From: Escherichia coli
GTDB taxonomy: Bacteria > Pseudomonadota > Gammaproteobacteria > Enterobacterales > Enterobacteriaceae
Reading direction: 5' to 3' (one strand)
NCBI RefSeq assembly: GCF_003334315.1
Contig: NZ_QOWR01000092.1
Length of the DNA: 7,507 nucleotides
Position 1 is the stretch's first letter. Each line of letters starts with the position of its first letter. Below are positions 3,779 to 3,812 of this stretch, piece by piece. Both the position numbers and the translations under genes were made by a program. The notes below the pieces were generated by a model. It saw only the letters and a program-made list of their open reading frames with translations. It ran no database searches and was not told where the DNA came from.

Positions 3779-3812
3779 CCACAGGGCTGGTTTTCTGCTG
3801 CCAGCCCTGTGG
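3779..3812. terminator. Perfect 12-bp stem-loop (CCACAGGGCTGG / 10-nt loop / CCAGCCCTGTGG), possible transcript-end or stabilising hairpin
   Basis: Perfect inverted repeat read directly from the sequence, 11 nt beyond the stop (3823-3825) of the minus-strand 202-aa gene. No clean U-tract on either strand, so terminator function is uncertain. Confidence 0.3.

Follow-up and report, generated by a model that had tools for sequence, protein, structure and literature searches.

The window analysed here, a stretch of 7,507 nucleotides, belongs to the chromosome of Escherichia coli and lies close to cobU in an integrative island of CP4-44-like type; its positions 76-7507 match strain AHM9C68I at 100%. 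The features needed for the description of the locus are the following, in window coordinates.

603-935, tnpA of an IS66-family element
932-1279, tnpB of the same element
1329-2864, tnpC of the same element
2998-3777, minus strand, untranslated island backbone of ~780 nt that follows the main hairpin on the sense strand, with stretches richer in C than in G as possible Rho-loading sequence
3740-3764, minus strand, second, weaker hairpin with G-C-rich 8-bp arms (AGCGGCGT / ACGCCGCT) and a loop of 9 nt
3778-3813, minus strand, main hairpin, a perfect 13-bp stem (3778-3790 / 3801-3813) with a loop of 10 nt
3823-4425, minus strand, gene of a 200-aa hypothetical protein (WP_000813432.1; one source names a member of the cluster 'Aec62'), with the main hairpin in its 3' UTR
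4519-4725, minus strand, gene of a 68-aa AlpA-family, excisionase-like HTH protein (phrog_66 'excisionase and transcriptional regulator', E = 7e-9)

The AlpA-like gene precedes the 200-aa gene on the minus strand with 93 nt between them, and the two probably form one operon. The pair was also found in Yersinia similis (L012). No match to the 200-aa protein was obtained in Pfam, NCBIfam, PHROGs or PADLOC, and this Aec62-like protein can be regarded as an uncharacterised conserved partner of the excisionase-like regulator. Its length depends on the start chosen, with 200 aa in the RefSeq annotation, 202 aa from the first ATG and 205 aa from a GTG; the 202-aa gene of an earlier note on this DNA is therefore right for the first ATG and departs from the RefSeq annotation (3823-4425). 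From E. coli to Yersinia and Serratia the Aec62-like protein (61-64% identity) keeps its AlpA-like partner. The ~1.1 kb that separates the AlpA-like gene from the next annotated one (4726-5851) is unannotated in the matching RefSeq records. In other strains (L001, L003, L007) the corresponding interval is occupied by an insertion of the IS110 family, by one of IS66 or by a gene of the Hha/YmoA family.

All island genes downstream of the operon are on the minus strand, among them genes for a GTPase, an antirestriction protein and CbtA/CbeA, and no convergent gene exists in the lineage that carries the hairpin. An inovirus-Gp2-family protein is also encoded by the island. In the literature searched on aec62 or on CP4-44/AlpA/Rho, nothing was found that touches the hairpin locus.

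The IS66-family element is complete (469-2905), with terminal repeats beginning GTAAGCG and an 8-bp target duplication CATTCTCT (461-468 and 2906-2913). It was inserted into an older IS21-family remnant (115-473 and 2906-2997), of which 92 nt (2906-2997) are left on the hairpin side, and these are followed by ~780 nt of island backbone up to the hairpin. The description of the hairpin as bordering an IS-proximal tract was thus a loose one, since the IS66 element ends at 2905 and the IS21 remnant at 2997, with ~780 nt between. In other strains (L001, L003, L007), IS100 or no insertion is present at nearly the same place, so the IS66 site is one that collects insertion sequences.

The arms of the main hairpin, ACCACAGGGCTGG (3778-3790) and CCAGCCCTGTGGT (3801-3813), are 100% complementary over 13 bp, with G-C pairs at 9 of the 13 positions. 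On the minus strand, which is the sense strand, the RNA would read ACCACAGGGCUGG-CAGCAGAAAA-CCAGCCCUGUGGU, then AAAAUACAG; in the plus-strand RNA a 14th pair (G-U) is possible, which would reduce the loop to 8 nt. Between the stop codon (3823-3825, minus strand) and the stem there is a gap of 9 nt (3814-3822). The earlier note had given a perfect, GC-rich 12-bp stem with a 10-nt loop, 11 nt past the stop codon. The perfect pairing, the loop length (for arms 3778-3790 / 3801-3813) and the position just past the stop codon were all confirmed, while the stem was found to be 13 bp long, and with this longer stem the distance becomes 9 nt.

The hairpin alone has a folding energy of -25.6 kcal/mol as minus-strand RNA and -28.9 kcal/mol as plus-strand RNA. 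Folded in context, it gave z values from -4.25 to -6.38, with 0 shuffles folding equally well, and the stop codon plus 60 nt gave z = -5.75. No other inverted repeat of >=10 bp within 100 nt was observed in the window, except an imperfect 11-nt palindrome in tnpC. The full hairpin pattern was expected 0.00 times from shuffles, and a perfect repeat of >=13 bp with a loop of 3-20 nt arose in 2 of 300 dinucleotide shuffles of the window. The hairpin is real, and for a single window it exceeds what chance would give. At a rate of 2/300, a few such repeats are expected by chance in a 5-Mb genome, so the position of the hairpin, directly past a stop codon, counts more than its existence.

The tails past the stem are AAAAUACAG on the minus strand and UCUCAGAC on the plus strand, and a U-tract is present in neither: the minus-strand tail has no U in its first four positions and the plus-strand tail has 2 U in 8. 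The sole T-run, TATTTT, precedes the stem when the plus strand is read 5' to 3' and so is on the wrong side. The consensus terminator scan returned nothing at the hairpin site. Along the minus strand from the stop codon to the IS21 remnant it returned a single weak candidate of 5 bp and no canonical terminator; in the scanned region as a whole, terminator-like sites were fewer than expected from shuffles.

With a canonical intrinsic terminator the hairpin shares a stable, G-C-rich stem-loop (-25.6 kcal/mol) right past the stop codon of a coding region. It differs from one because the U-rich tract of 7-8 nt directly 3' of the stem is missing on both strands, and because the sense-strand loop of 10 nt exceeds the usual ~3-8 nt, a loop of 8 nt being reached on the plus strand only with the G-U pair. 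The arrangement of a bidirectional terminator (A-tract 5', U-tract 3', convergent genes) was not found at the hairpin either. Canonical and bidirectional intrinsic terminators were ruled out by the absence of a U-tract on both strands. The earlier note was therefore correct that a classic U-tract is lacking, as the two tails and the empty scan indicate, and that this is not a simple intrinsic terminator, given also the 10-nt loop of the minus strand; its suggestion of a bidirectional terminator finds no support, since there is a U-tract in neither direction and no convergent gene in the lineage.

Without a U-tract, the hairpin alone should not release RNA polymerase. It might still act as a weak, non-canonical intrinsic terminator, either of the minus-strand operon or in both directions, with the hairpin as driving element and perhaps with help from NusA/NusG. 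The very stable G-C-rich stem directly past the stop codon would suit such a role, as would the stronger plus-strand hairpin (-28.9 kcal/mol), whose tail begins UCU, and intermediates between intrinsic and Rho-dependent termination are possible (PMC6061677). However, efficient intrinsic termination by E. coli RNA polymerase needs a U-tract (PMC6061677), while both tails here are U-poor, the T-run of the plus strand is on the 5' side, the consensus scan is empty at the hairpin and a convergent gene is absent in the lineage. Weak termination at the hairpin is consequently considered improbable.

The tract that follows the hairpin on the sense strand was characterised by its C/G ratio in windows of 78 nt. 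The ratio was 1.2-1.5 at 3785-3668, 2.0 at 3565-3488 and up to 3.1 at 3185-3108, values that are suggestive of Rho loading, with the limits that the enrichment just past the hairpin is only mild and that C/G composition alone is insufficient to define a rut site. A strongly C-rich, G-poor stretch is present on the minus strand at 3068-3205, ~600 nt downstream of the hairpin, which makes it a candidate Rho-loading region.

Part of this tract, 3516-3718, is non-coding and ~70% identical to paralogous islands, compared with ~90% in the adjacent gene. A hidden small gene that the hairpin might serve was ruled out there, as codon periodicity is absent (mismatches by phase 21/21/13) and the indels break the frame. 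In other strains the same interval carries conflicting annotations of small ORFs on either strand.

Queries of 111 nt and 48 nt centred on the hairpin were searched against 5426 complete E. coli genomes, and with each query the hairpin was present in 1891 of them. It occupied a median of 1 and a maximum of 2 places per genome, at the same locus every time. Strain ATCC 25922 has the locus too. Among the records of the 48-nt query, 1075 were identical and 816 had one base difference. In the two of the latter that were read, the difference is C>A at 3815, which lies two nt beyond the stem. Small deletions seen in a single frameshift-rich record were taken to be assembly errors. At orthologous loci the stem is thus invariant, with essentially two haplotypes that differ at 3815. 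This invariance says little on selection because the locus is almost clonal, and covariation could not be seen, as no stem changes exist among the nearly clonal orthologues.

Viral contigs contained 0 copies of the hairpin, and no Rfam family (all families, E <= 1) matched in the window. No enrichment of the hairpin half-sites was seen, either in the window or over 31 kb of the island, and neither direct repeats nor a target-site duplication were found flanking it. Like a REP/BIME element, the hairpin is an extragenic, G-C-rich palindrome that could stabilise the upstream mRNA, and the second hairpin is located 13 nt downstream of it on the sense strand; unlike REP/BIME elements, which have hundreds of dispersed copies, it is single-copy per genome and has no Rfam match. 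To our knowledge, it bears no resemblance to the REP consensus. REP/BIME elements and dispersed palindromes (MITE) were ruled out by copy number and by the 0 matches in viral contigs. An IS end or island junction at the hairpin was likewise ruled out, because homology to paralogues exists on both sides. The genome-wide check of the palindrome proposed in the earlier note, with a REP-like repeat in mind, accordingly gave one copy per genome at a single locus, and its protein-binding palindrome found no backing in the half-sites of the window or the 31 kb of island.

A role at the level of DNA would make the palindrome a site bound by a protein of the island, for instance the AlpA-like HTH or the Gp2-family protein, a place of recombination or nicking, or what is left of a small mobile element (REP, MITE or IS end). 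It is a perfect palindrome in a mobile island that encodes an excisionase-like HTH protein and an inovirus-Gp2-family protein, which is what such a role has in its favour. The single copy at one locus and the empty viral contigs speak against it, as do the lack of half-site enrichment and of a target-site duplication, and the paralogue homology running through both flanks means that the hairpin is not an element junction. Furthermore, paralogous islands with the same proteins have no hairpin, the other metagenomic occurrences described below lie beside housekeeping genes of unrelated organisms, and operators of dimeric HTH proteins seldom have a spacer of 10 nt. A DNA-level role is thus considered very improbable.

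Metagenomes were searched for the 12-nt arms, kept intact, around any loop of 3-20 nt, and at least 32 loci were obtained. Among the 32 matches listed, 29 were the same E. coli locus; one of these (L028) had two adjacent changes in the loop with the stem intact, in a search that demanded intact arms. The remaining three belong to unrelated organisms. In two of them (L038, 11792-11829; L045, 5761-5798), 14-bp arms with a 10-nt loop are located 46 nt past the pyrH stop codon, beside ackA. In the third (L047, 1258-1289), 13-bp arms with an 8-nt loop are located 29 nt past the stop codon of a TRAP DctP-like gene, and this hairpin has the 13th pair and an AAAAT flank in common with that of the window. 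Nothing beyond a few flanking bases is common to these loci. A hairpin family comprising the three was set aside in view of the unrelated organisms, the other gene contexts and the large collection searched, and they were judged to be independent gene-end hairpins whose likeness is probably coincidental. Their positions indicate that such sequences recur as hairpins at the 3' ends of genes, a point in favour of the exonuclease barrier proposed below.

Paralogues of the 200-aa gene occur in other E. coli island copies with about 89-91% identity. BLAST alignments with the paralogous islands end at window position 3839 and resume at ~70% over 3516-3718, while direct alignment indicated that the entire 3' region is homologous to the paralogues, merely more diverged. 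In place of the 36-nt hairpin, the paralogues L005, L006 and L011 have the shorter GGTTGCTTCCGGAAGG, without strong pairing. The folding z of the stop codon plus 60 nt was -1.49, +0.46, -1.01 and +0.13 at four paralogous loci, against -5.75 here. The scan of genome contigs gave homologues in only two other species, Yersinia similis and Serratia sp., and no comparable hairpin was found at either locus, the stop codon plus 90 nt having z values of +1.04 and +0.20, respectively. Inspection of the Serratia locus by eye showed a stem of 7 bp that encloses a very large loop and precedes TTTTT; this structure was not significant.

The hairpin is absent in the paralogues and in Yersinia and Serratia despite flanking homology, and is therefore a lineage-specific gain and not a structure ancestral to the operon. 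As a test of function, the earlier note had looked to conservation of the palindrome in related loci; the palindrome is indeed invariant in orthologous loci, and it is absent from paralogous and more distant ones. A structure kept in diverged relatives with compensatory changes, as in a conserved structured RNA, was not found among these loci.

The alignment also gave some indication of how the hairpin arose. The outer part of the right arm, TGTGGT, corresponds to TGCGGC or TGTGAC in the paralogues, and the inner part of the left arm, GGCTGG, corresponds to GGTTGC. The 'new' segments of the arms, ACCACAG and CCAGCC(C), are complements of the ancestral-looking halves of the opposite arm. In quasi-palindrome template-switch mutations, a perfect palindrome is generated in which the new bases are complementary to the old ones of the opposite arm. 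The present hairpin is like them in being a perfect palindrome where paralogues have an imperfect, shorter sequence, a likeness that bears on its origin and not on its function. The half-ancestral, half-new arms, read from a short alignment of ~60% identity, suggest the pattern expected of a template-switch mutation.

On this background the palindrome could be selectively neutral, that is, a recent gain by template switch or small insertion that persists because the lineage is young, with any effect on RNA incidental. This is the chief rival of the explanation preferred below. Its absence at all paralogous and distant homologous loci with homology on both sides would fit, as would the arms, each half ancestral and half new, which suggest a single mutational event. 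The lack of variation, and hence of covariation, agrees with neutrality too, and the 2/300 rate for perfect repeats of >=13 bp lets a few be expected per genome. Against neutrality, a position 9 nt past the stop codon at the end of a terminator-less operon is a typical place of functional hairpins, and the template-switch reading rests on a short, diverged alignment of ~60% identity. By established biochemistry, moreover, a hairpin so stable blocks 3' exonucleases regardless of its origin (PMC6061677). A neutral palindrome is accordingly regarded as possible, though rather unlikely.

Rho-dependent transcripts are known to carry protective stem-loops with terminator-like energy and no U-rich tail, which are followed by a mild enrichment of C over G and guard the RNA against PNPase and RNase II (PMC6061677). 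The hairpin is like these in several respects: it is stable and G-C-rich, it comes soon past a gene without canonical terminator, a U-rich tail is absent, and the untranslated sequence that comes after it has stretches of C over G, a suggestive composition. A stable stem-loop that U-rich sequence does not follow, as in this class, was found at this locus. The hairpin is unlike the typical members in its 10-nt loop and its 13 perfect bp, which place it at the large, strong end, and in its restriction to a single lineage of an island acquired by horizontal transfer.

The explanation preferred is that the hairpin acts as a barrier to 3' exonucleases and fixes the 3' end of the operon mRNA after Rho-dependent termination further downstream, a tentative reading to which a probability of about 0.45 was given. 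So stable a hairpin will fold in every minus-strand RNA that reads across the site. The minus-strand transcript of the operon would fold into the stem-loop of -25.6 kcal/mol 9 nt past the stop codon, and transcription would run past it into the ~780-nt untranslated tract, which is partly C-rich and G-poor. Rho would end transcription inside this tract; PNPase and RNase II would then shorten the RNA from its 3' end until halted at the base of the hairpin, leaving a stable mRNA 3' end. The structure, its position, the missing U-tract, the single copy and the restriction to one lineage are observed, while the operon, the dependence on Rho and the role as exonuclease barrier are inferred. Among the three roles offered in the earlier note, namely RNA 3'-end stabiliser, bidirectional terminator and protein-binding palindrome, the first fits best, on account of the 9 nt to the stop codon, the terminator-less strand and the long untranslated tract with stretches of C over G. 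As the downstream island genes are co-directional with the operon, a barrier at the hairpin would separate the regulatory pair from those genes.

Some findings count against the hairpin as an exonuclease barrier. The paralogous operons, whose genes are ~90% identical, and the Yersinia and Serratia homologues do without the structure (z from -1.5 to +1.0), and since the paralogous operons have no significant structure past the stop codon, the operon evidently works without the hairpin. The 10-nt loop also exceeds that of typical terminator-like hairpins, and C outweighs G only slightly in the sequence next to the stem. A stronger proposal, in which the hairpin is a selected control element, either an insulator gained recently in this lineage, perhaps by template switch, that uncouples the AlpA-like operon from the downstream genes or a DNA site for an island protein such as that of the inovirus-Gp2 family, is hardly to be expected. 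Most likely the hairpin is an ordinary stem-loop that protects an RNA end, of a kind already known and specific to one lineage, and it may have no selected function.

If the hairpin does serve as an exonuclease barrier, it would define where the AlpA-like/Aec62 transcription unit ends on its 3' side, within an island found in about one third of the complete E. coli genomes, and it would add one more protective stem-loop without a U-tract. The comparison with paralogues suggests an abrupt gain of the hairpin in one lineage and so provides a small illustration of how a 3'-end structure may originate.

A minor observation concerns the second hairpin (3740-3764). In strain ESY001 it carries 3743 G>A (plus strand), which gives a G-U pair in the minus-strand RNA and an A-C mismatch in the plus-strand RNA. 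This change, a single event and not significant, points only faintly to the minus-strand RNA as the molecule that matters.
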